From contig JBBSAP010000005.1 of assembly GCA_038252165.1 (NCBI GenBank), positions 61-64,060 on the forward strand: a stretch of 64,000 nt of DNA, read 5' to 3'. Positions 54,099-63,806 of the stretch are shown here, piece by piece (positions within the stretch are counted from its first letter, which is position 1; the number at the start of each line of letters is the position of its first letter). The position numbers and the translations under genes are program-made. This DNA is from Bacteroidales bacterium. GTDB lineage: Bacteria > Bacteroidota > Bacteroidia > Bacteroidales > VadinHA17. The notes below the pieces were generated by a model. That model saw only the letters and a list, made by a program, of their open reading frames with translations. It was not told the origin of the DNA and searched no databases.

Positions 54099-54818
54099 AT
54101 GAAAAACCTGAAGTATTGTCTAATTATTTCATTAGCTCTTGTCATCACATTTTGTACTGATGGTCAGATACGGAGGACGGTTTATGGCAACAACCATGTT
54201 GTTAAGAAGGAAAGAGAGGCGGGAAGATTCACGGGATTAAGGGTCAGCAGCGGAATTGATGTATATCTGAAACAAACCGGCAATGAATCGATTGAGGTTG
54301 AAGCAGATGAGAACCTGCATGAATATATATTGACTGAGATCAGGGATGGCGTTCTGCATGTCTACACAGAGACCAATATCAGGGAAGCTGAAATGAAGAG
54401 AGTTTATGTTACTATGAAGGATATCAGCTCCCTTAAAACTTCCAGTGCCGGAGATATTATTGGTGAGACTCCGGTGAAAACTGATAAACTTGAATTATCA
54501 GCAACCAGCGCCGGTGATATCAAACTTGAAATCTATGTAAAAGAAGTTGAGGCAACCATAAGCAGCTCAGGAGATGTGACACTTACCGGGGAAGCTGATA
54601 TACTAAACGCGAACCTGAGCAGTGCGGGAGATCTCAATTCCTTTGGATTGGAGGTAAGGGAAGCCGATGTTTCTGCTTCGAGTGCCGGAGATGCTGATAT
54701 TAATGTCTCTGAAAGATTAAGAGCCAGATCCTCAAGCGCAGGAGATATTAATTACCGCGGGAATCCGAAATACCTTGATGCTCACTCATCAAGTGCAGGT
54801 GGTGTGCACAGGAAATAG
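54099..54818 (+). CDS. head-GIN / DUF2807-like beta-helix repeat protein
   Basis: 239 aa with a signal peptide and seven S(S/T)AGD(I/V/L/A) repeats at ~20-aa spacing, preceded by VSSGIDVYL. Confidence 0.7.
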   Translation: MKNLKYCLIISLALVITFCTDGQIRRTVYGNNHVVKKEREAGRFTGLRVSSGIDVYLKQTGNESIEVEADENLHEYILTEIRDGVLHVYTETNIREAEMKRVYVTMKDISSLKTSSAGDIIGETPVKTDKLELSATSAGDIKLEIYVKEVEATISSSGDVTLTGEADILNANLSSAGDLNSFGLEVREADVSASSAGDADINVSERLRARSSSAGDINYRGNPKYLDAHSSSAGGVHRK

Positions 54819-57355: not shown

Positions 57356-57485
57356 CATTCCTTGAGATCTTCATCTAAAAAGACTTCTATTCAATTTTAT
57401 TTATTTTCCGATAAAATCTGACATCTTTTCTAATGCGCTGATTAATAATTTGTTAAAATTATTACTATAATTTATTATGTATATA

Positions 57486-57502
57486 TATTTTTGTTATTTT
57501 TG
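57486..57502 (+). promoter_or_regulatory. two tandem candidate -7 boxes (TATTTTTG x2) upstream of the five-gene operon
   Basis: Boxes at 57486-57493 and 57495-57502 both fit TAnnTTTG. They sit in a 212-bp AT-rich intergenic region, 66-75 nt upstream of the ATG at 57568. Confidence 0.45.
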
Positions 57503-57567
57503 AATTAAAGGGGATTCCCTATAGTAACTTAAATCTTCGTCAAAACAATTCGATATCCTTATTCCTT

Positions 57568-59304
57568 ATGAAGAAACAATTAATGCTTCTGTCGGCGCTT
57601 ATTATCACTATTACTTGCATGTCCCAAAATGTCTCCAGTGCGGGCGAAAAAGTCAAAAAAAATCAGATTGCTTCTGAATATGATCGCAATTCCCTTACAT
57701 ATCTCCTTATAGATTTTGGAGATAATAGTATCAATGATTTATTGAAAGAATCATTTCAGGGCATAAAGGTTAATGATAAATTTGATGATAACAACATTGA
57801 CAAACGGTTTATAAAACCCCCTGTTTCCAGGGAAGAAATACTAAAATCCCAGTTCTTGACCCCATCTGTACATACTCTTGTAACAGACAAAATCGGAAAG
57901 GCATTGGTTGAAGGGAAGTACTCTAATGATGTTATTGCCAAATGGTTTTCAAGAAAACCTGATGGTGCGTTTGGAGTGGAACTCCTTCAGGAGCGTGGCT
58001 TGTACAATTCTACTGACGCAGATGTTAAAGCTGCCTCCTCAAGTAAACTTGGTATGACAAAACTGATGGATTCCGGTGAAAAACTTCTTAATAAAAGCTA
58101 TTTAATAGTATTTGATGTAAGTGATCTAATTACCAAAGAAGAGTATTACAACAGGCTGGACAAAAACAGTAAAACTCCTGTCAAAAGAGACAGAAATGGT
58201 TTTCAGACAAACATTAATGCATATATTTTCAAGATAGATTTCAATGACTCAATAAATGCGGTATTCTGGCAACAACTTTGGACAGATAAGACTGATCCCG
58301 GATTAAATGCAAGAAGAGAAGCTTTCAACGGTTTTTCATTCCCGGTAAAATATATTACCCGTCTTACAACAAGCACTGAATCAAGTCAGTATAATTCAGG
58401 GGAATCAGCAGCCCCAAAGGTCCAGAAAACAAATAAAGAATTAATGACAGATCTTCTTGCTACAGGAATGAATAATTCAATTCTTTTGCTTGAAAGGAAC
58501 ATTGAAGATTTCCGGGTAAAAACGACTCTATTTGCCACCAGACCTCTAAGAGCCAAAATAGGGTTTAAAGAAAATCTGAAAATTGATCAAAGGTATTTTG
58601 TATATGAAATGCGCCAGGGCGGCAATGGAAACATACAGGCACACAGGCAGGGTGTTATAAGGGCTACCAATAATATTACTGATAACCGTAAAATCGCAAC
58701 AGGTCAGACTGTACCCTCAGTATTTTACCAGGTTGCAGGGAAACGTCTTGACGCAGGAATGCTTTTACAGGAGCGCAATGATCTTGGAATTGCTTTGGGA
58801 GTGAGTTACAGTGCAGGAGGTATCGGTGGTTTTACCGGAAAGCTTGACATAAATATGTCGTCTTTTTTCAAGAAAAAAGCACCTTCAATGTTGAAACTCT
58901 TTCTTGAGGGTGGGTATGAGACAAAAAAAATACAGCTGACAATTAATTCCGTAACTGAAGATTATAATGATTTTTTACGGTTTGGATTGGGCCTCGGCAA
59001 AGAATTCTGTCTGCTCCGAAACTTCAGGATTCAACCATATGCATCCATCGGCCTTGAACAATTACCTAATAAAACAAACACTAAAAAATCTCTTTCATCA
59101 CTTTATGAGCACGCTGGTATTATGGCAGGTATAAATATCCTGCATAATTTGCAGCTCGTTGGTTCATACAACTATTACCTGATGAAGGGTAAAATTTCGG
59201 ATGAGGAAAAGGTCGATTATACTATTGATGGAATGTCAAAGTGGGGAGATGCATTTGGTAGGGGCGGAACTGCTGTTGACTTAGGATTAAGAATTGAATT
59301 TTAG
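57568..59304 (+). CDS. hypothetical secreted protein with a C-terminal beta-barrel-like domain (operon gene 1)
   Basis: 578 aa with signal peptide MKKQLMLLSALIITITCMSQ (possible lipobox Cys). The last ~170 aa show alternating beta-strand patterning and end LGLRIEF, an OMP-type terminal Phe. No family recognised. Confidence 0.65.
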   Translation: MKKQLMLLSALIITITCMSQNVSSAGEKVKKNQIASEYDRNSLTYLLIDFGDNSINDLLKESFQGIKVNDKFDDNNIDKRFIKPPVSREEILKSQFLTPSVHTLVTDKIGKALVEGKYSNDVIAKWFSRKPDGAFGVELLQERGLYNSTDADVKAASSSKLGMTKLMDSGEKLLNKSYLIVFDVSDLITKEEYYNRLDKNSKTPVKRDRNGFQTNINAYIFKIDFNDSINAVFWQQLWTDKTDPGLNARREAFNGFSFPVKYITRLTTSTESSQYNSGESAAPKVQKTNKELMTDLLATGMNNSILLLERNIEDFRVKTTLFATRPLRAKIGFKENLKIDQRYFVYEMRQGGNGNIQAHRQGVIRATNNITDNRKIATGQTVPSVFYQVAGKRLDAGMLLQERNDLGIALGVSYSAGGIGGFTGKLDINMSSFFKKKAPSMLKLFLEGGYETKKIQLTINSVTEDYNDFLRFGLGLGKEFCLLRNFRIQPYASIGLEQLPNKTNTKKSLSSLYEHAGIMAGINILHNLQLVGSYNYYLMKGKISDEEKVDYTIDGMSKWGDAFGRGGTAVDLGLRIEF

Positions 59305-59326
59305 AACAATTTAAATCTATATTGCT

Positions 59327-59833
59327 ATGAAAACCGTAAAACTTTCTATTCTTATTATCATTTTTATCATTTTCTCGGTTTCCGGTTACGGACAGAGAAA
59401 AAAGAATCCTGCCGCCTATTATGATATTGAGGTTGAATGCATGGGTACAGGAATGGACGGAACACAGCTGATTAAAGTCTGGGGATATGGTAAAAAACCA
59501 GATGATGCTATTGAACAGGCAAAAAAGAATGCTGTTCAGGCAGTAATGTTCAAGGGGATAACCACAGGTAAGCCAGGCTGTATGATGCGTCCGCTTATAA
59601 CTGATCCCGGAGCAGAACAGCAGCATCAGGATTATTTTGTTGCTTTTTTCAAAGAGCATGGCAAGTACCTGAATTTTGTTAACGTAAGCAATGATGGAAG
59701 TATTGATCCCAAAGACAGGCTTAAAGCCGGTAAACAATTTAAAATAGGGATTCTTGTTTCGGTATCACATAATGCTCTTCGCAAAGAGCTTGAATCTGCC
59801 GGTATCATAAAAGCATTAGGCCAGGGTTTCTAA
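59327..59833 (+). CDS. hypothetical secreted protein (operon gene 2)
   Basis: 168 aa with signal peptide MKTVKLSILIIIFIIFSVSGYGQ. The gap from gene 1 is 22 nt. No family recognised. Confidence 0.65.
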   Translation: MKTVKLSILIIIFIIFSVSGYGQRKKNPAAYYDIEVECMGTGMDGTQLIKVWGYGKKPDDAIEQAKKNAVQAVMFKGITTGKPGCMMRPLITDPGAEQQHQDYFVAFFKEHGKYLNFVNVSNDGSIDPKDRLKAGKQFKIGILVSVSHNALRKELESAGIIKALGQGF

Positions 59834-59853
59834 ATTAATTTAACCTGATAATT

Positions 59854-60801
59854 ATGAAAAGAATATTGTTTTTTTTATTTGCAGGGTTGTTTACATCAAC
59901 ATCATTTGGCCAGGCCAAGAAGCCTACAATAATGGTCGTCCCCAGCGATGTATGGTGCACACAGAACAACTATATGACAAAGTTTGATAACCAGGGTACC
60001 GAGGAGCGTATTCCTGATTATAAACGTGCATTGCAGAGTGATCCAAATCTGCTGCTGGTCATTTCAAAGATAAATACATTAATGACTGACAGAGGATTCC
60101 CTTTAAAGAATCTTGAAACTGTTTTGAAGGATATTGATCGCCAAAGGGCTGAAGATAATATGACTTCAAGTACAACAAGCGGGGCTTCTCTTGCAGAAAG
60201 CCCACTTGATATTATAAAGAATACTGCTAAAAGCGATATCATAATGCAACTTACCTATACAATTAACACACAGGGACCTAAAAAATATATAACTTTTATT
60301 CTTCAGGGTCTGGATGCTTACACAGATAAGCAGATTGCGGGTGCTCAGGGAAGCGGCCAACCTTCATTTTCAGCTGATCCTCCGCTACTTCTCGAAGAAG
60401 CTGTTCTTTCTCATATCGACAATTTCAATGCTCAGCTTCAGTCGCATTTTGATGATCTTTTAGCTAACGGACGTGAAGTAACTGTAAGGATTAGAGTATT
60501 TAACGGGTCACCTATTGATCTTTCACACGAATATAACGGGATCGAACTTGCTGAAATCATTGATAACTGGATGGCAAAACATACCGTAAATGGGCGTTAT
60601 AGCAACAGCGACGGGAGTGAAAACTTCATACTTTTTGAGCAGGTCCGCCTTCCACTTTATACCGAGACTAATAAAGCGATGGATACCAGACAATTCGTCA
60701 CTGAATTAAAGAAATTCCTCAACGCAGCGCCATATAATATTACATGTAAAGTAATGACTCAGGGATTAGGTCGCGCTACGCTTGTTATTGGAGAAAAATA
60801 A
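59854..60801 (+). CDS. hypothetical secreted protein (operon gene 3)
   Basis: 315 aa with signal peptide MKRILFFLFAGLFTSTSFGQ. The gap from gene 2 is 20 nt. No family confidently recognised. Confidence 0.65.
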   Translation: MKRILFFLFAGLFTSTSFGQAKKPTIMVVPSDVWCTQNNYMTKFDNQGTEERIPDYKRALQSDPNLLLVISKINTLMTDRGFPLKNLETVLKDIDRQRAEDNMTSSTTSGASLAESPLDIIKNTAKSDIIMQLTYTINTQGPKKYITFILQGLDAYTDKQIAGAQGSGQPSFSADPPLLLEEAVLSHIDNFNAQLQSHFDDLLANGREVTVRIRVFNGSPIDLSHEYNGIELAEIIDNWMAKHTVNGRYSNSDGSENFILFEQVRLPLYTETNKAMDTRQFVTELKKFLNAAPYNITCKVMTQGLGRATLVIGEK

Positions 60802-60818
60802 ATAAAAACGGAATTATT

Positions 60819-61790
60819 ATGAAAAAGTCAATTCTTATAATTTTCGCTTTAGCTGTTTGTATCCTGACAACCAAAGCACAGAACATTTTATCTAAATCCG
60901 ATGACCTGGCCAGGATATCTCTTACTCCTGTTGTACCAGAACAGATGGACGGAATGCCTGAAAATGCCCTCAGTGTCCTTGATAATAAGCTTCAACAAAT
61001 TGCAGCCAGCAATGGACTAGGCGCAATTGACTATAATCCAAGGTTCATTTTAACTTGTAAGGTTGTACTGGTTACCAAAGATATTATCCCGGGACCTCCG
61101 GCTATGCATGCTTACAATATGGACCTTACTCTCTATATTGCTGATTATTTTTCAAAAAATGTTTTTTCTACTACTACCGTCTCTGTAAAAGGTGCCGGTA
61201 CAAATGAAAATAAAGCATATATAAATGGAATCAGCAATGTCAACGCCAATTCAAATCAGTTCAAATCATTCATTGAAAAGGGGAAACAGAAAATAATTGA
61301 GTATTATAATTCAAAGTGCGACTTCATTATAAAAGAAGCATTGACTATGGCATCAACTGATAGATATCGCGAAGCTATATATAATCTTATGTCGATCCCC
61401 GATGTTTGTAAAGAATGCTATGACAAGGCAATGAATGAAGTTCCGGACGTTTACAAAAGATTCATAGACTATGTTTGTAACCAGAATCTGGCTGCAGCTA
61501 AAGCTGTTTGGGTTGCTAATCCAAACTCCGAAGGAGCAAACGCTGTTGCCGGGTTTCTTGCTGATATTTATCCGGATGCTTCCTGCTACGGAGATGCTCA
61601 AAAACTTATTAATGAAATAAGGAAAAAAATCCTGAAGGATGAAAACCGTGACTGGAATTTCATGCTAAAGGTCTGGAGCGATAATGTTAGCCTTGAAAGT
61701 CAGCGGATTAAGGCTATGCGGGATATTGGTGTAGCCTGGGGTAATCATCAGCCTCAGATAATTTATGATGTAAACTGGATTATTCATTAA
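60819..61790 (+). CDS. hypothetical secreted protein (operon gene 4)
   Basis: 323 aa with signal peptide MKKSILIIFALAVCILTTKAQ. The C-terminal half is Cys-containing and helical (CKECYDKA, YVCNQ, ASCYGDA). The gap from gene 3 is 17 nt. Confidence 0.65.
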   Translation: MKKSILIIFALAVCILTTKAQNILSKSDDLARISLTPVVPEQMDGMPENALSVLDNKLQQIAASNGLGAIDYNPRFILTCKVVLVTKDIIPGPPAMHAYNMDLTLYIADYFSKNVFSTTTVSVKGAGTNENKAYINGISNVNANSNQFKSFIEKGKQKIIEYYNSKCDFIIKEALTMASTDRYREAIYNLMSIPDVCKECYDKAMNEVPDVYKRFIDYVCNQNLAAAKAVWVANPNSEGANAVAGFLADIYPDASCYGDAQKLINEIRKKILKDENRDWNFMLKVWSDNVSLESQRIKAMRDIGVAWGNHQPQIIYDVNWIIH

Positions 61791-61805
61791 TTAAAACTAT
61801 TGAAC

Positions 61806-62402
61806 ATGCGTAATAAAATCACCCTTTTAATATTCCTTTTGGCAATGCCTTTATTGGCATCAGCACAGACTAAAATCGGTCCAACCGTAAGACTTGGATA
61901 CACATTCCCTGATAAAACAAGTAAAATCTATAATATTACAGGAGGCATATGTCCTGCTTTTGGAATTACAATGCAGAATGAAATAAATTACTGGTTATCC
62001 ATTAAATCTTCTTTGCGGTATTCATTCAGTCAGATAAAGACTGTTACAAAGCAAGATGAACTGAAAGATCAACTGAAAGGACAGTTCCTAGATCTGATAG
62101 TTGCAGGACGTTTCTCCGGGTTTGATGAATCTTCAAAATTACTGCCGTATGGAATAGCAGGACTCGGAAATTCTTTCAATCTGCTCACCAAAGGGGCTGA
62201 GTTATATCTCTCGGATACTAAATATAAAGGTTCTGTTCCATTTTTTACTGTTGGGGCAGGGACAGGAATAAAAATGTCCTTCTTTTCCGAATTTGATCTT
62301 TCTGTTACATTTAGCCGTTATCTGGCTCCGGTTTTAATTCTGGAAGACAATTCAGGAGTTAGAATGAACATGGTAAGTTTTGAAGTATCGGCACTTTTTT
62401 GA
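61806..62402 (+). CDS. small outer-membrane beta-barrel protein (operon gene 5)
   Basis: ~198 aa from ATG 61806 (the ORF track starts at TTG 61800). Signal peptide MRNKITLLIFLLAMPLLASAQ. It shows alternating beta-strand pattern and ends SALF. The size fits an 8-stranded barrel. Confidence 0.65.
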   Translation: MRNKITLLIFLLAMPLLASAQTKIGPTVRLGYTFPDKTSKIYNITGGICPAFGITMQNEINYWLSIKSSLRYSFSQIKTVTKQDELKDQLKGQFLDLIVAGRFSGFDESSKLLPYGIAGLGNSFNLLTKGAELYLSDTKYKGSVPFFTVGAGTGIKMSFFSEFDLSVTFSRYLAPVLILEDNSGVRMNMVSFEVSALF

Positions 62403-62420
62403 AAGAGGAATACAGCTTTA

Positions 62421-62454
62421 TGAAAAAGGGAGTTTACTAAACCTCCCTTTTTCA
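62421..62454. terminator. bidirectional intrinsic terminator between convergent genes
   Basis: TGAAAAAGGGAG (62421-62432) pairs with CTCCCTTTTTCA (62443-62454), leaving a 10-nt loop. The A-run and T-run flanks allow it to work on both strands. Confidence 0.75.
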
Positions 62455-62462
62455 TAAACAAC

Positions 62463-63806
62463 CTATTTCTTTAGCTTATATTTTTTCACAAATTCATCAA
62501 TTACCTGTGACAGGTTTGGATCACCAATTTCCTGAAGATCGTAATATACTCTTGTATTCGGTTTTTTAATCTTTATTATACGGTTCAGGTCAATCGGTGT
62601 AGCAATTATGACGCTGTCGCAATCAGTATTGTTAATTGTTTTTTCAAGGTCCTTTAGCTGCTGGTCACCATAACCCATTGCAGGAAGGAGTGTTCCGATA
62701 TTCGGATATAGCCTGAAGGTTTCGCTAAGCTTTCCGACCGTAAATGGACGGGGATCAACAAGTTCAGCTGCACCATATTTCCTTGCAGCAACAACTCCTG
62801 CCCCGATTTTCATTTCACCATGTGTAAGGGTTGGCCCGTCCTCAACGACAAGAACTCTTTTCCCCCTGATAATGGATGAATCATCAACTTTTATAGGTGA
62901 TGCCCCATCAATTACTATCGCTTTTGGATTTACTTTTTCAATGCTCTCCCTGACAATCTGGATAGCTTCAGGGGGGGCACTGTCCATTTTGTTTATAACA
63001 ACAACATCCGCAATGCGGAGAGTAACTTCACCAGGATAATACCTCAACTCATGTCCGGCTCTGTGAGGATCCGTAACTGTAACCATCAGATCAGGCTTGT
63101 AAAACGGGAAATCGTTGTTACCCCCGTCCCACACGATCACATCACAACCTTTCGGATCTTTTTCGGCTTTGCGAAGTATAGCTTCATAGTCGACCCCGGC
63201 ATATATGACGTTACCCCTTGCAACATGAGGTTCATATTCTTCCATCTCTTCAACGGTGCATTTATGTTTAGCAAGATCGCTGATCGCAGCAAACCGCTGG
63301 ACTTTCTGTTCTGTAAGATCACCATAAGGCATTGGGTGACGTACTGCCACAACCCTGAGTCCTTTTTCCATTAAAAGTTCTATTATCCTTCTCGAAGTCT
63401 GGCTTTTTCCGCATCCGGTCCTTATGGCTCCAACTGCAATTAAAGGCTTTGTGCTTTTAACCATTGTTGCAGCCGGACCAAGAAGAACAAAATTAGCACC
63501 AGTCGCATTCACCAATGCACTTACTGACATCACTTTCTGATATGTAACATCACTGTATGAGAAAACACAGTCATCGACCTTGAATTTCTCTATCAATTCT
63601 GCAAGCTTATCCTCGGGGAAGATCGGAATGCCTTTCGGATATAATTTTCCTGCCAGCACACCGGGATACTTCCTTCCAGCAATATCAGGTATCTGGGCCG
63701 CTGTAAATGCAACAACATTATAACTTTCATTGTCCCTGTAGAAAGTATTAAAGTTATGAAAATCCCTTCCTGCTGCACCGATTATAATTACATTCCTCTT
63801 TTGCAT
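62463..63806 (-). CDS. P-loop protein resembling cyclic 2,3-diphosphoglycerate synthetase family
   Basis: 447 aa. The N-terminus VIIIGAAGRDFHNFNTFYRDNESYNVVAFTAAQIP and the internal P-loop GAIRTGCGKSQT match my memory of the archaeal cDPG-synthetase-like family. The function in bacteria is not established. Confidence 0.6.
   Translation of the reverse strand: MQKRNVIIIGAAGRDFHNFNTFYRDNESYNVVAFTAAQIPDIAGRKYPGVLAGKLYPKGIPIFPEDKLAELIEKFKVDDCVFSYSDVTYQKVMSVSALVNATGANFVLLGPAATMVKSTKPLIAVGAIRTGCGKSQTSRRIIELLMEKGLRVVAVRHPMPYGDLTEQKVQRFAAISDLAKHKCTVEEMEEYEPHVARGNVIYAGVDYEAILRKAEKDPKGCDVIVWDGGNNDFPFYKPDLMVTVTDPHRAGHELRYYPGEVTLRIADVVVINKMDSAPPEAIQIVRESIEKVNPKAIVIDGASPIKVDDSSIIRGKRVLVVEDGPTLTHGEMKIGAGVVAARKYGAAELVDPRPFTVGKLSETFRLYPNIGTLLPAMGYGDQQLKDLEKTINNTDCDSVIIATPIDLNRIIKIKKPNTRVYYDLQEIGDPNLSQVIDEFVKKYKLKK

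Follow-up and report, generated by a model that had tools for sequence, protein, structure and literature searches.

A conserved DUF6175-containing gene cluster of Bacteroidota and its possible role as an envelope scaffold

The window analyzed here, a 64,000-nucleotide stretch of a Bacteroidales genome, contains five closely packed plus-strand genes (g1 to g5), with an AT-rich promoter region upstream and a strong terminator hairpin downstream. Four of these genes, g1 to g4, belong to families that recur together across the Bacteroidota, with the DUF6175 protein g3 as their best-conserved core component. We consider these four most likely to form a periplasmic hetero-oligomeric scaffold, possibly ring-forming, which would be tethered to the outer membrane (OM) by small β-barrels or by a lipoprotein paralogue. 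To the proposal that g1 to g4 are subunits of one complex on the periplasmic side of the OM, with g5 as a lineage-specific extra anchor, we assign a probability of about 55%.

The operon and its products

The intergenic gaps measure 22, 20, 17 and 15 nt, in agreement with the preliminary description; the last shrinks to 9 nt if g5 starts at an alternative TTG at 61800, giving 200 residues, but an independent gene call of the contig takes the 198-residue ATG form. The promoter region upstream of g1 (212 nt, 57356..57567, + strand; function inferred from position only) has a GC content of 28-29%, compared to about 43-49% in the flanks, and a motif search located two Bacteroidota-type −7 boxes in it (TATTTTTG; 57486-57493 and 57495-57502, + strand), so that both the composition and the TAnnTTTG boxes are as first described. 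Since this motif is not enriched across the whole window (51 found versus 57 expected), only the position of the boxes counts as evidence. The bidirectional intrinsic terminator is a hairpin with a 16-bp stem and an A-run and a T-run on its flanks (62417..62458), beyond which a convergent gene (62463-63806, − strand) faces g5. With a ΔG of −20.3 kcal/mol (z = −5.5, or −5.47 to two decimals), it was matched in stability by none of 200 shuffled sequences, which bears out its description as strong.

All five products carry the expected signal peptide, a hydrophobic leader followed by a glutamine, with the cleavage contexts CMS/Q, GYG/Q, SFG/Q, TKA/Q and ASA/Q. A glutamine after the cleavage site is the 'Q-rule' of Bacteroidetes signal peptidase I (PMC5837995, PMC10653852), and this residue is invariant or nearly so in the family alignments of g1, g3 and g4. 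Judged from these leaders, every subunit is exported via Sec and signal peptidase I. The conserved cysteine pairs found in g2 and in g4 are in keeping with an oxidising compartment.

The first gene, g1 (57568-59304, + strand, 578 residues by ORF call), encodes a signal peptide (residues 1-19, cleaved before Q20), a periplasmic α/β part (residues ∼36-316, nt 57673-58515), a small, strongly conserved β-domain (residues ∼317-403, nt 58516-58776) and an 8-stranded OM β-barrel (residues 408-578, nt 58789-59301) ending in GLRIEF. Its confident AlphaFold2 (AF2) model (pLDDT 87.9, pTM 0.81) and Foldseek matches of the barrel to TtoA, Ail, OmpX, NspA, OmpA and OmpW (E 1e-6 to 2e-3) support the barrel with terminal Phe that had been read from the sequence. 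The non-barrel part has weak Foldseek matches to FlgT (3w1e) and the LPHT ring (8z5n; E 3e-4 to 6e-4). None of 113 g1 homologues bears a functional name.

The second product, g2 (59327-59833, + strand), is a small secreted α/β protein of 168 residues by ORF call, with a conserved cysteine pair (C38, C85) and no detectable relatives in Pfam or PDB. Most Bacteroidota have two g2 paralogues, g2a and g2b, the second often a lipoprotein with a lipobox. UniRef names one Pedobacter g2a a 'SPOR domain-containing protein'; Pfam reproduces none of the database names SPOR, LPP20 and TPR even at E ≤ 10. The fourth gene, g4 (60819-61790, + strand, ORF call), encodes a secreted protein of 323 residues with 1059 homologues and no Pfam family; its C-terminal half contains four cysteines (C167, C200, C220, C256) that are invariant in the family alignment.

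The third product, g3 (59854-60801, + strand, 315 residues), belongs to DUF6175 (PF19672, E 1.8e-120), a family from at least 571 species across the phylum that falls into at least 7009 clusters when grouped at 90% identity and has 1163 representatives at 50%. We found no paper that mentions this family; the earlier statement that none of the genes could be placed in a characterised family needs the correction that g3 belongs to a named, though uncharacterised, one. In the likewise confident AF2 model (pLDDT 84.7), an N-domain (residues 21-205, nt 59914-60468) is followed by a small α+β C-domain (residues 206-315, nt 60469-60798); the sole disordered loop spans about 12 residues and there are no membrane hairpins capable of forming a pore. 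Family alignments show no variation in the sequence QAKKPT at the mature N-terminus or in the C-terminal GEK, and identity across classes remains at 57-61%, which is consistent with many protein-protein interfaces. Together with rare caspase fusions (see below), this conservation could instead reflect a catalytic or regulatory role.

The last product, g5 (61806-62402, + strand), is a small OM β-barrel of 198 residues that ends in Phe, as first described, and is now supported by a Pfam OMP_b-brl match (E 3.5e-8). In none of the operon's products did we find an enzyme motif, a T9SS C-terminal domain, a pilin, a TonB box or a SusD signature, as had been noted before.

A four-family module across the Bacteroidota

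We clustered all ORFs of 82 DUF6175 loci to find recurrent neighbor families. Only four families recur, all on one strand: g3 (82 loci), g4 (80), g2 (78; 141 members) and g1 (75). There are no other conserved neighbors in these loci, whose flanking genes are unrelated. The loci span Bacteroidales, Flavobacteriales, Sphingobacteriales, Chitinophagales, Saprospirales and Cytophagales, and the module was seen only in contigs attributable to Bacteroidota. The order g2-g3-g4 is colinear across the phylum, with g1 nearby, and g4 lies directly downstream of g3 in 80 loci, the remaining two being cut by contig ends. The preliminary description had called the operon an orphan of five genes; neither term applies, as g1 to g4 are syntenic across the phylum and g5 is confined, among the 82 loci, to those of the closest relatives (L005-L008).

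The similarity of g1 proteins across the phylum is limited to residues 1-∼403, and in most lineages g1 lacks the barrel and has 405-480 residues. By these comparisons, the conserved unit is the N-terminal part of g1, one or two copies of g2, g3 and g4; the barrel fused to g1 is lineage-specific and g5 is a lineage-specific accessory outside the module. The arrangement with a barrel protein at either end is therefore no general layout. In Flavobacterium, a separate barrel gene (OMP_b-brl_2, E 1e-23) lies immediately upstream of a barrel-less g1, and its product is homologous to a barrel fused onto another g1-like protein. Bacteroidales clusters and locus L088 contain other small barrels as insertions. 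We detected no relationship of g5 to the g1 barrel or to the Flavobacterium barrel.

Natural gene fusions argue for a physical complex. Among 150 DUF6175 representatives, 18 are g2::g3 fusions, in which the C-terminus of g2 leads directly into the mature AKKPTIMVVPSD N-terminus of g3 without a second signal peptide, and one (P0391) is a g3::g4 fusion. These fusions and the phylum-wide synteny strengthen the earlier suggestion of a dedicated multi-protein envelope assembly. That the five genes encode functionally unrelated secreted proteins on a shared transcript, a reading to which the dispensability of g5 and the g1 barrel in most lineages lends something, is disfavoured as very improbable, given the colinearity of g2-g3-g4 with g1 close by and the recurrence of in-frame fusions.

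Fold-level similarities and alternative functions

Structure comparisons place the DUF6175 N-domain and the g1 N-terminal part, at the level of modeled fold only, among α/β folds of the CsgG/GNA1162/LpoB/PelC/FlgT class. The best Foldseek match of DUF6175 was GNA1162 (E 1.8e-4), followed by CsgG (1e-3), FlgT (1.5e-3), the C-terminal domain of LpoB (1.6e-2) and PelC (2.4e-2). These matches are modest (E 2e-4 to 5e-2 for the class) with low TM-scores (0.2-0.5), and we detected no relationship to these families at the sequence level. An assignment to curli-like or LPP20-type clusters, which by the preliminary description would count against its reading, holds for the fold alone: all tests of the module for curli, LPP20 or FlgT membership failed, each testable defining feature being absent.

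One alternative is a curli- or Pel-like apparatus, in which a DUF6175 ring guides or anchors an extracellular fibre or polysaccharide at the OM, as with CsgG, HfaB and PelC. The fold of DUF6175 speaks for it, as does the widespread, functionally obscure three-gene cluster of Proteobacteria that combines a CsgG/HfaB homologue with DUF4810-type and DUF799/GNA1162-type lipoproteins and affects PNAG, pili and biofilm in A. baumannii (10.1101/2021.05.19.444899). Like our module, this cluster is a small operon, and its exported products associate with the OM and have the same α/β fold. However, the module has no sequence similarity to it, comprises four different subunits plus small barrels and is made, except for some g2b paralogues, of signal peptidase I substrates rather than lipoproteins; g3 itself has no lipobox. 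DUF6175 also has an additional C-terminal domain and lacks pore-forming hairpins, and 8-stranded barrels are not channels. As Pfam matches to CsgG, Curlin, CsgE/F, LPP20 and DUF799 are absent, and the four families have no conserved neighbor that encodes an amyloid subunit, a glycosyltransferase or a polymerase, we regard such an apparatus as unlikely.

Equally improbable is an OM-anchored regulator or tether of peptidoglycan, which might activate a cell-wall synthase or hydrolase in the manner of LpoB, or act as an OM-peptidoglycan staple in place of Braun's lipoprotein, which is not known from Bacteroidota. An OM-tethered periplasmic layout would suit this role, and the DUF6175 N-domain shares its fold class with LpoB, the OM-anchored activator of PBP1B, and with PelC, which forms a dodecameric OM lipoprotein ring in Pel export; both work on the periplasmic side of the OM. 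Yet they are single-domain lipoproteins matched only weakly by DUF6175 (E 1.6e-2 to 6e-2), LpoB being among the weakest matches in the fold class, and LpoB is monomeric, in contrast to four co-conserved and sometimes fused subunits. Neither pel genes nor PBP or hydrolase genes are linked to the module, and the SPOR name of the Pedobacter g2a, which would speak for this role, is not supported by Pfam.

More doubtful still is a periplasmic platform for proteolysis or conflict, on which the scaffold positions a caspase-like protease, fused or in trans, for envelope-protein processing or defence. It is suggested by a Peptidase_C14 (caspase) domain with intact His and Cys motifs in 4 of the 150 DUF6175 representatives (E 1e-20 to 1e-23). 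In L088, the cluster around such a fusion is typical except that an unrelated protein takes the place of g4. Only ∼3% of representatives have the domain, however, and neither the window operon nor the 80 genome loci contain a protease. There were no PADLOC or PHROGs matches, and typical defence islands differ from the module, which shows vertical distribution and high conservation.

A candidate tethered scaffold

The Vibrio H-ring, a documented precedent in which FlgT and the small α/β lipoproteins FlgP and FlgO form concentric, OM-tethered rings without a pore (10.64898/2025.12.02.691832), resembles the module in two respects: both the g1 N-terminal part and g3 match FlgT (3w1e) and 8z5n, and a FlgT-like multi-domain protein is encoded beside small α/β proteins, one of them often lipidated. 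The differences are that sequence homology is lacking (TM-scores ∼0.2), that the H-ring has nothing equivalent to DUF6175 or g4 and that the module would be anchored by a barrel and not by lipid alone. Bacteroidota are not known to have flagella, and the 82 loci contain no flagellar genes.

The barrels of g1 and g5 are of the 8-stranded OmpA/OmpX class, although the domain order of g1, with its soluble part N-terminal to the barrel, is opposite to that of OmpA, and neither protein has the peptidoglycan-binding OmpA_C domain. Since the termini of 8-stranded barrels face the periplasm, the C-terminal barrel would hang the ∼370-residue N-terminal part of g1 directly beneath the OM; by these topology rules we place the complex in the periplasm and not on the surface. 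Units of g2, g3 and g4 may then bind the conserved β-domain of g1 and form a ring- or lattice-shaped oligomer. Ring formation is suggested by analogy with oligomers of the same fold class (CsgG 9-mer, PelC 12-mer, FlgT 26-mer). In lineages without a fused barrel, a separately encoded small barrel or the lipidated g2 paralogue could serve as the tether.

Near the module there are no genes for a partner machine or substrate. As its barrels are too small for pores and DUF6175 lacks membrane hairpins, it would be a scaffold or platform rather than a secretion channel, and such a scaffold may organise or stabilise something on the inner side of the OM.

The operon and its protein families

The five genes, g1 to g5, lie on the plus strand and encode proteins of 578 (g1, 57568-59304), 168 (g2, 59327-59833), 315 (g3, 59854-60801), 323 (g4, 60819-61790) and 198 residues (g5, 61806-62402), with intergenic gaps of 22, 20, 17 and 15 nt. 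For g5, which could also start at a TTG at 61800, an independent annotation of this contig uses the ATG. The 212-nt spacer upstream of g1 has a GC content of 28–29%, against about 43–49% around it, and a hairpin (62417-62458, 16-bp stem, dG −20.3 kcal/mol, z = −5.5) lies between g5 and the convergent gene. Two TAnnTTTG boxes are found in the spacer, at 57486 and 57495; as the window as a whole has 51 copies of this motif where 57 are expected, it is solely their position that suggests a promoter role. Each of the five products has a hydrophobic N-terminal signal peptide and, directly after it, a glutamine, which is invariant or nearly so in alignments of the g1, g3 and g4 families and corresponds to the 'Q-rule' of Bacteroidetes signal peptidase I (PMC5837995, PMC10653852). 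The preliminary description of five tightly spaced genes for secreted proteins is thereby borne out, as is its statement that T9SS C-terminal domains and SusD-like, TonB-box and pilin signatures are absent: to C-terminal sorting, SusD, TonB-box/plug or pilin domains, the five proteins had no matches in Pfam or NCBIfam.

The flanking genes (DUF2807, phosphoglucose isomerase, PfkB kinase, GH95, ABC transporters) are unrelated to the operon. The secreted DUF2807 protein (54099-54818, plus strand, E 6e-50), a 'putative auto-transporter adhesin, head GIN domain', is encoded about 2.7 kb upstream of g1 and precedes the phosphoglucose isomerase and PfkB kinase genes. Just downstream of the operon, a convergent 447-residue ORF (62463-63806, minus strand) is without a Pfam match at E ≤ 1e-5. 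The window contains no Rfam families or tRNAs.

In sequence searches, g3 matches the Pfam family DUF6175 (PF19672) over its full length (profile positions 1–293 of 293, 401.9 bits where the cut-off is 23, E 1.8e-120), and g5, whose C-terminus reads SALF, matches OMP_b-brl (34.3 bits, cut-off 28.7, E 3.5e-8). By these matches the operon belongs to the uncharacterized family DUF6175 and to the generic class of small outer-membrane (OM) barrels. For g1, g2 and g4, nothing rose above noise in Pfam, NCBIfam, PADLOC and PHROGs; we rejected a CodY-HTH match in g2 as spurious, since it reaches 23.4 bits at a cut-off of 27 and spans 25 residues of an exported protein. PADLOC returned no anti-phage defence system for the five proteins and PHROGs a single chance-level match (E 2e-3). 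As single sequences, the five had at most chance-level matches in PDB and NCBIfam, and family profiles of g1, g1-like, g2, g3 and g4 proteins found nothing among PDB sequences. Profile-profile comparisons of g1, g3 and g4 showed only signal peptides in common, so that we reject these proteins as detectable paralogues.

Clustered at 90% identity, DUF6175 forms at least 7009 clusters; at 50% identity, it is covered by 1163 representatives. We found 1059 homologues of g4 and 113 of g1, the latter from MAGs of Bacteroidales, Lentimicrobiaceae, Marinilabiliales and Tenuifilaceae and none with a functional name. Cluster look-ups for homologues in model organisms gave only MAGs and little-studied isolates, and literature searches yielded, out of 8.3 million papers, none under the name DUF6175 and nothing relevant on CsgG-like proteins in Bacteroidetes. 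Some related proteins, from loci L034 and L035, carry automatic names in UniRef or from depositors: 'LPP20 lipoprotein' for the DUF6175 protein and one of two g2 paralogues, g2b, in Dysgonomonas, 'SPOR domain-containing protein' for the other, g2a, in Pedobacter, and 'Tetratricopeptide repeat-containing protein' for g4. None of these names was reproduced by Pfam at E ≤ 10.

A module of four families

With one genome scanned for each species, DUF6175 occurred in at least 571 species, including Bacteroidales, Dysgonomonas, Tannerella, Paludibacter, Flavobacterium, Pedobacter, Chitinophaga, Saprospira and Cytophagales. When all ORFs of at least 80 residues in 82 DUF6175 loci were clustered, only four families recurred: g3 (82 loci), g4 (80), g2-like (78) and g1-like (75). 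Their genes all have the same strand and there is no further conserved neighbour. The g2-like family accounts for 141 proteins in its 78 loci, mostly two tandem paralogues. Among the commonest gene orders are g1-g2a-g2b-g3-g4 in Flavobacteriia, Sphingobacteriia and Chitinophagia, g2a-g2b-g3-g4...g1 in Bacteroidales, and g1-g2-g3-g4 as in the window. Wherever the contig extends far enough, g4 directly follows g3, and in one locus (L053, 6902-8901) the two stand alone, with g1 and g2 absent within 7 kb; g3 and g4 together make up the smallest invariant core. Upstream of the pair in L053 come genes for a protein of FecR-like or anti-sigma type and for a large OM protein.

Sequence identity with the proteins of the window drops very unevenly, to 57–68% for g3, about 40–47% for g4, about 35–50% for g2 and about 22–28% for g1. 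The g1 matches in other loci are confined to residues 1 to ∼403, and most g1 homologues are 405–480 residues long, have no barrel and end in a conserved FKGGxxFYPGMLIRQIK, while g5 occurs only in the four closest of the 82 loci (L005-L008). Since only four families recur, the g1 match stops at residue ∼403 and g5 is so confined, the conserved unit consists of the barrel-less N-terminal part of g1 (g1N), one or two copies of g2, DUF6175 and g4. The window operon is a local variant of it, with a barrel fused to g1, a second barrel in g5 and a single g2. What had been described as an orphan five-gene operon bounded by barrel proteins is thus one form of a phylum-wide, syntenic four-component module, and its two barrels are lineage-specific rather than a hallmark.

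Three MAGs binned as 'Ruminococcus flavefaciens', 'Flexilinea sp.' and 'Clostridiales bacterium' (L011, L041, L043) also contain the module, with g3 58–65% identical and the Bacteroidales-type gene order kept; they are likely mis-binned Bacteroidota contigs and not cases of transfer to Firmicutes or Chloroflexi. We reject an origin from mobile elements, as searches for carriage on plasmids gave no match and the single 'phage' record looks bacterial. This record (L090; MT836698.1, 1-9077, 'UNVERIFIED: Bacteriophage sp.'), a 9-kb scaffold from human faeces, has no recognizable phage genes and holds a complete bacterial module, with a WG-repeat protein, g1N, g2, a 191-residue ORF, g2, DUF6175 and g4, and in addition an AAA_14/DUF4143 ATPase; it is probably a piece of bacterial DNA that ended up in a virome. 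The WG-repeat protein adjoining the module there (568-2307; WG_beta_rep, E 1.6e-36) could be a lineage-specific accessory, as could a family of ∼221 residues whose genes, in loci of the Bacteroides type, separate g4 from g1 (L010, 9027-9689; similar in L011, L020-L022, L028 and L030), two members of which (L010, L020) had no Pfam match at E ≤ 0.1.

Fold-level similarities and known systems

The AF2 model of g3 (108 sequences, pLDDT 84.7, pTM 0.77) has an N-domain (residues 21–205) and a small α+β C-domain (206–315), and this monomer is compact, with a sole low-confidence loop at residues 105–116. In Foldseek searches, the N-domain had GNA1162/DUF799 as its best match (E 1.8e-4, 14% identity), followed by CsgG (E 1e-3, TM 0.3–0.4), FlgT (E 1.5e-3, TM ∼0.2), XCC0632 (DUF330, E 7e-3), the C-domain of LpoB (E 1.6e-2), PelC (E 2.4e-2) and, more weakly, HpaA. 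At 8–15% identity, these similarities are at the level of the fold and not of family membership; by them, the N-domain falls into a fold class of periplasmic, OM-associated proteins.

The model of g1 (64 sequences, pLDDT 87.9, pTM 0.81) comprises an α/β part (residues ∼36–316), a small β-domain (∼317–403) to which most invariant residues belong (G332, K334, E335, R342, F344, N373, G379, Y387, G391, G397), and an 8-stranded barrel (408–578). The barrel, which ends in RIEF and has no Pfam match by sequence, was matched by Foldseek to TtoA, Ail, OmpX, NspA, OmpA and OmpW (E 1e-6 to 2e-3, probability 1.00), whereas the remainder weakly resembles FlgT (3w1e, E 6e-4; 8z5n, LPHT ring, chain 0, E 2.6e-4; TM ∼0.2). 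The structure search proposed in the preliminary description, carried out for g1 and g3, thus added the barrel and fold-level similarities, but no family membership.

CsgG has a lipoprotein signal, and two transmembrane β-hairpins per subunit build its 36-strand pore. The signal peptide of g3 ends in SFG, followed by QAKK, with no lipobox cysteine and with Q20 invariant in 108 sequences, and its monomer model contains no loop long enough for such hairpins. The CsgG profile (PF03783) matched none of the five proteins at E ≤ 1, nor g3 at E ≤ 10, and a curlin-repeat subunit or CsgE/F genes were found neither by Pfam in the operon nor among the conserved neighbours in the 82 loci. What the module shares with curli secretion is fold likeness alone, and with profile, lipobox, membrane hairpins and CsgA/B/E/F all absent, we consider a curli- or Pel-like exporter or anchor unlikely. 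None of 54 g2-family members matched LPP20 (PF02169) at E ≤ 1, nor did the Dysgonomonas proteins of that name at E ≤ 10, leaving an LPP20/FlgP-like nature of g2 unsupported by sequence. Of a possible assignment to a curli-like or LPP20-type cluster, the likeness to CsgG stands, but the tested defining features are absent. For FlgT, Pfam detected no FlgT_N/M/C domains, PDB gave no sequence match even with profiles, and the 82 loci contain no flagellar genes; for DUF799/GNA1162, g3 has no Pfam or PDB sequence match and no lipoprotein signal. The module therefore lacks the tested defining features of curli, LPP20, FlgT/H-ring and DUF799. An LpoB-like role or a tether between OM and peptidoglycan also seems improbable to us. 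The SPOR name on Pedobacter g2a offers a lead, but one that Pfam does not reproduce.

In layout, the best-documented analogue is the Vibrio H-ring, in which three-domain FlgT (C26) and the small α/β lipoproteins FlgP and FlgO (C58) build concentric OM-tethered rings that form no pore (10.64898/2025.12.02.691832). The best match in fold is the CsgG/HfaB three-gene lipoprotein cluster with GNA1162 homologues, which is widespread, of unclear function, and affects PNAG, pili and biofilm in A. baumannii (10.1101/2021.05.19.444899). The module belongs to a kind already known, OM-associated periplasmic assemblies on a CsgG/TolB-N/LpoB-like fold. Its set of subunits is new; the module is restricted to Bacteroidota, and for three of the four core families Pfam has no model.

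Fusions, tethers and a possible architecture

Among the best 150 of the 1163 DUF6175 representatives, 18 are fusions of g2 to g3, one of them also with a caspase domain, and one (P0391) is a fusion of g3 to g4. In the g2::g3 fusions, DUF6175 begins with its mature N-terminus AKKPTIMVVPSD right after the C-terminus of g2 and lacks a signal peptide of its own, which confirms the predicted signal cleavage site. They occur within otherwise normal clusters, for example one with a barrel-bearing g1, g2::g3 and g4 (L085). Since such in-frame fusions of neighbours follow the gene order and recur over many 50%-identity clusters, classical evidence for physical, stoichiometric association, the products of g2, g3 and g4 probably associate. 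One further representative (P0368) has an N-terminal extension of ∼134 residues with hydrophobic segments that look membrane-spanning and no cleavable signal peptide, and may be an inner-membrane-anchored form.

Four of the 150 representatives (P0372, P0416, P0493, P0419; loci L084, L088, L089) include a caspase domain (Peptidase_C14) in which the His and Cys motifs, YAGHG and DACFSG, are intact. In L088, an unrelated 347-residue protein takes the position of g4, and the cluster also includes a 330-residue barrel at its head and a DUF4384-like protein. These variants would fit a protease platform, a reading to which we give a very low probability for the module. That unrelated genes merely share a transcript is contradicted by synteny and fusions and hardly credible.

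Both g5 and the C-terminal domain of g1 have the features of 8-stranded OM barrels, by HMM or structure and by their C-terminal aromatic residue. In Flavobacterium, an OMP_b-brl_2 gene (192–198 residues, E 1e-23) lies directly upstream of a barrel-less g1, and a homologue of its product is found as a fused barrel in another g1-like protein, L045:9173; some Bacteroidales have a barrel-like ORF of ∼245 residues between g2a and g2b, and many g2b paralogues have lipoboxes. BLAST detected no mutual homology between g5, the g1 barrel and the Flavobacterium barrel, so that we reject g5 as a paralogue of either, and conclude that the barrels were recruited independently. Because barrels and lipid anchors recur convergently in differing forms, we argue that the module needs an OM tether, the kind of which seems of little importance.

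The architecture we propose builds on what sequences and models show: every subunit has a signal peptide, g2, g3 and g4 are inherited together and at times fused, g1 bears a barrel, and there are folds of the CsgG/LpoB/FlgT class. Barrels of the OmpA/OmpX class have both termini in the periplasm and are not channels. The g1 barrel would sit in the OM and, since both its termini face the periplasm, the N-terminal part of g1 would hang beneath the membrane, where g2-g3-g4 units would dock and oligomerize. A scaffold or platform seems to us more likely than a secretion channel, because small barrels are not channels, the loops of DUF6175 are too short, and no substrate or biosynthetic genes are linked. 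To an OM-tethered periplasmic hetero-oligomeric scaffold we assign a probability of roughly 0.55. Closure of this scaffold into a ring is conceivable, though doubtful. Equally tentative is the proposal of a phylum-wide, unrecognized OM ring or disc machine, H-ring- or CsgG-like, assembled from g1N, g2a/b, DUF6175 and g4 and lacking a flagellum and any known cargo. Such a machine would be a structural novelty in the envelope of Bacteroidota and might, for example, encircle or stabilize a trans-envelope machine or control OM architecture and vesiculation, in some variants with a periplasmic caspase-like protease.

Bacteroidota are dominant members of gut, oral, soil and aquatic communities, and their envelope departs in many ways from the proteobacterial model, for example in its T9SS, SusCD systems and surface lipoproteins and in the absence of Braun's lipoprotein. 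The central subunit g3 is 57–61% identical across classes, which, together with its presence in so many species and 50%-identity clusters, implies that four co-inherited secreted proteins under such constraint have an important envelope role. Once reframed as a phylum-wide four-component set, the module is worth following up, and Pedobacter, Flavobacterium and Dysgonomonas are cultured carriers that could serve as experimental hosts. Defining it would add an entry to the parts list of the Bacteroidota cell envelope, would give a function to DUF6175 and to three families without a Pfam model, and may shed light on the proteobacterial CsgG/DUF799 lipoprotein clusters, which are no less obscure and share its fold.
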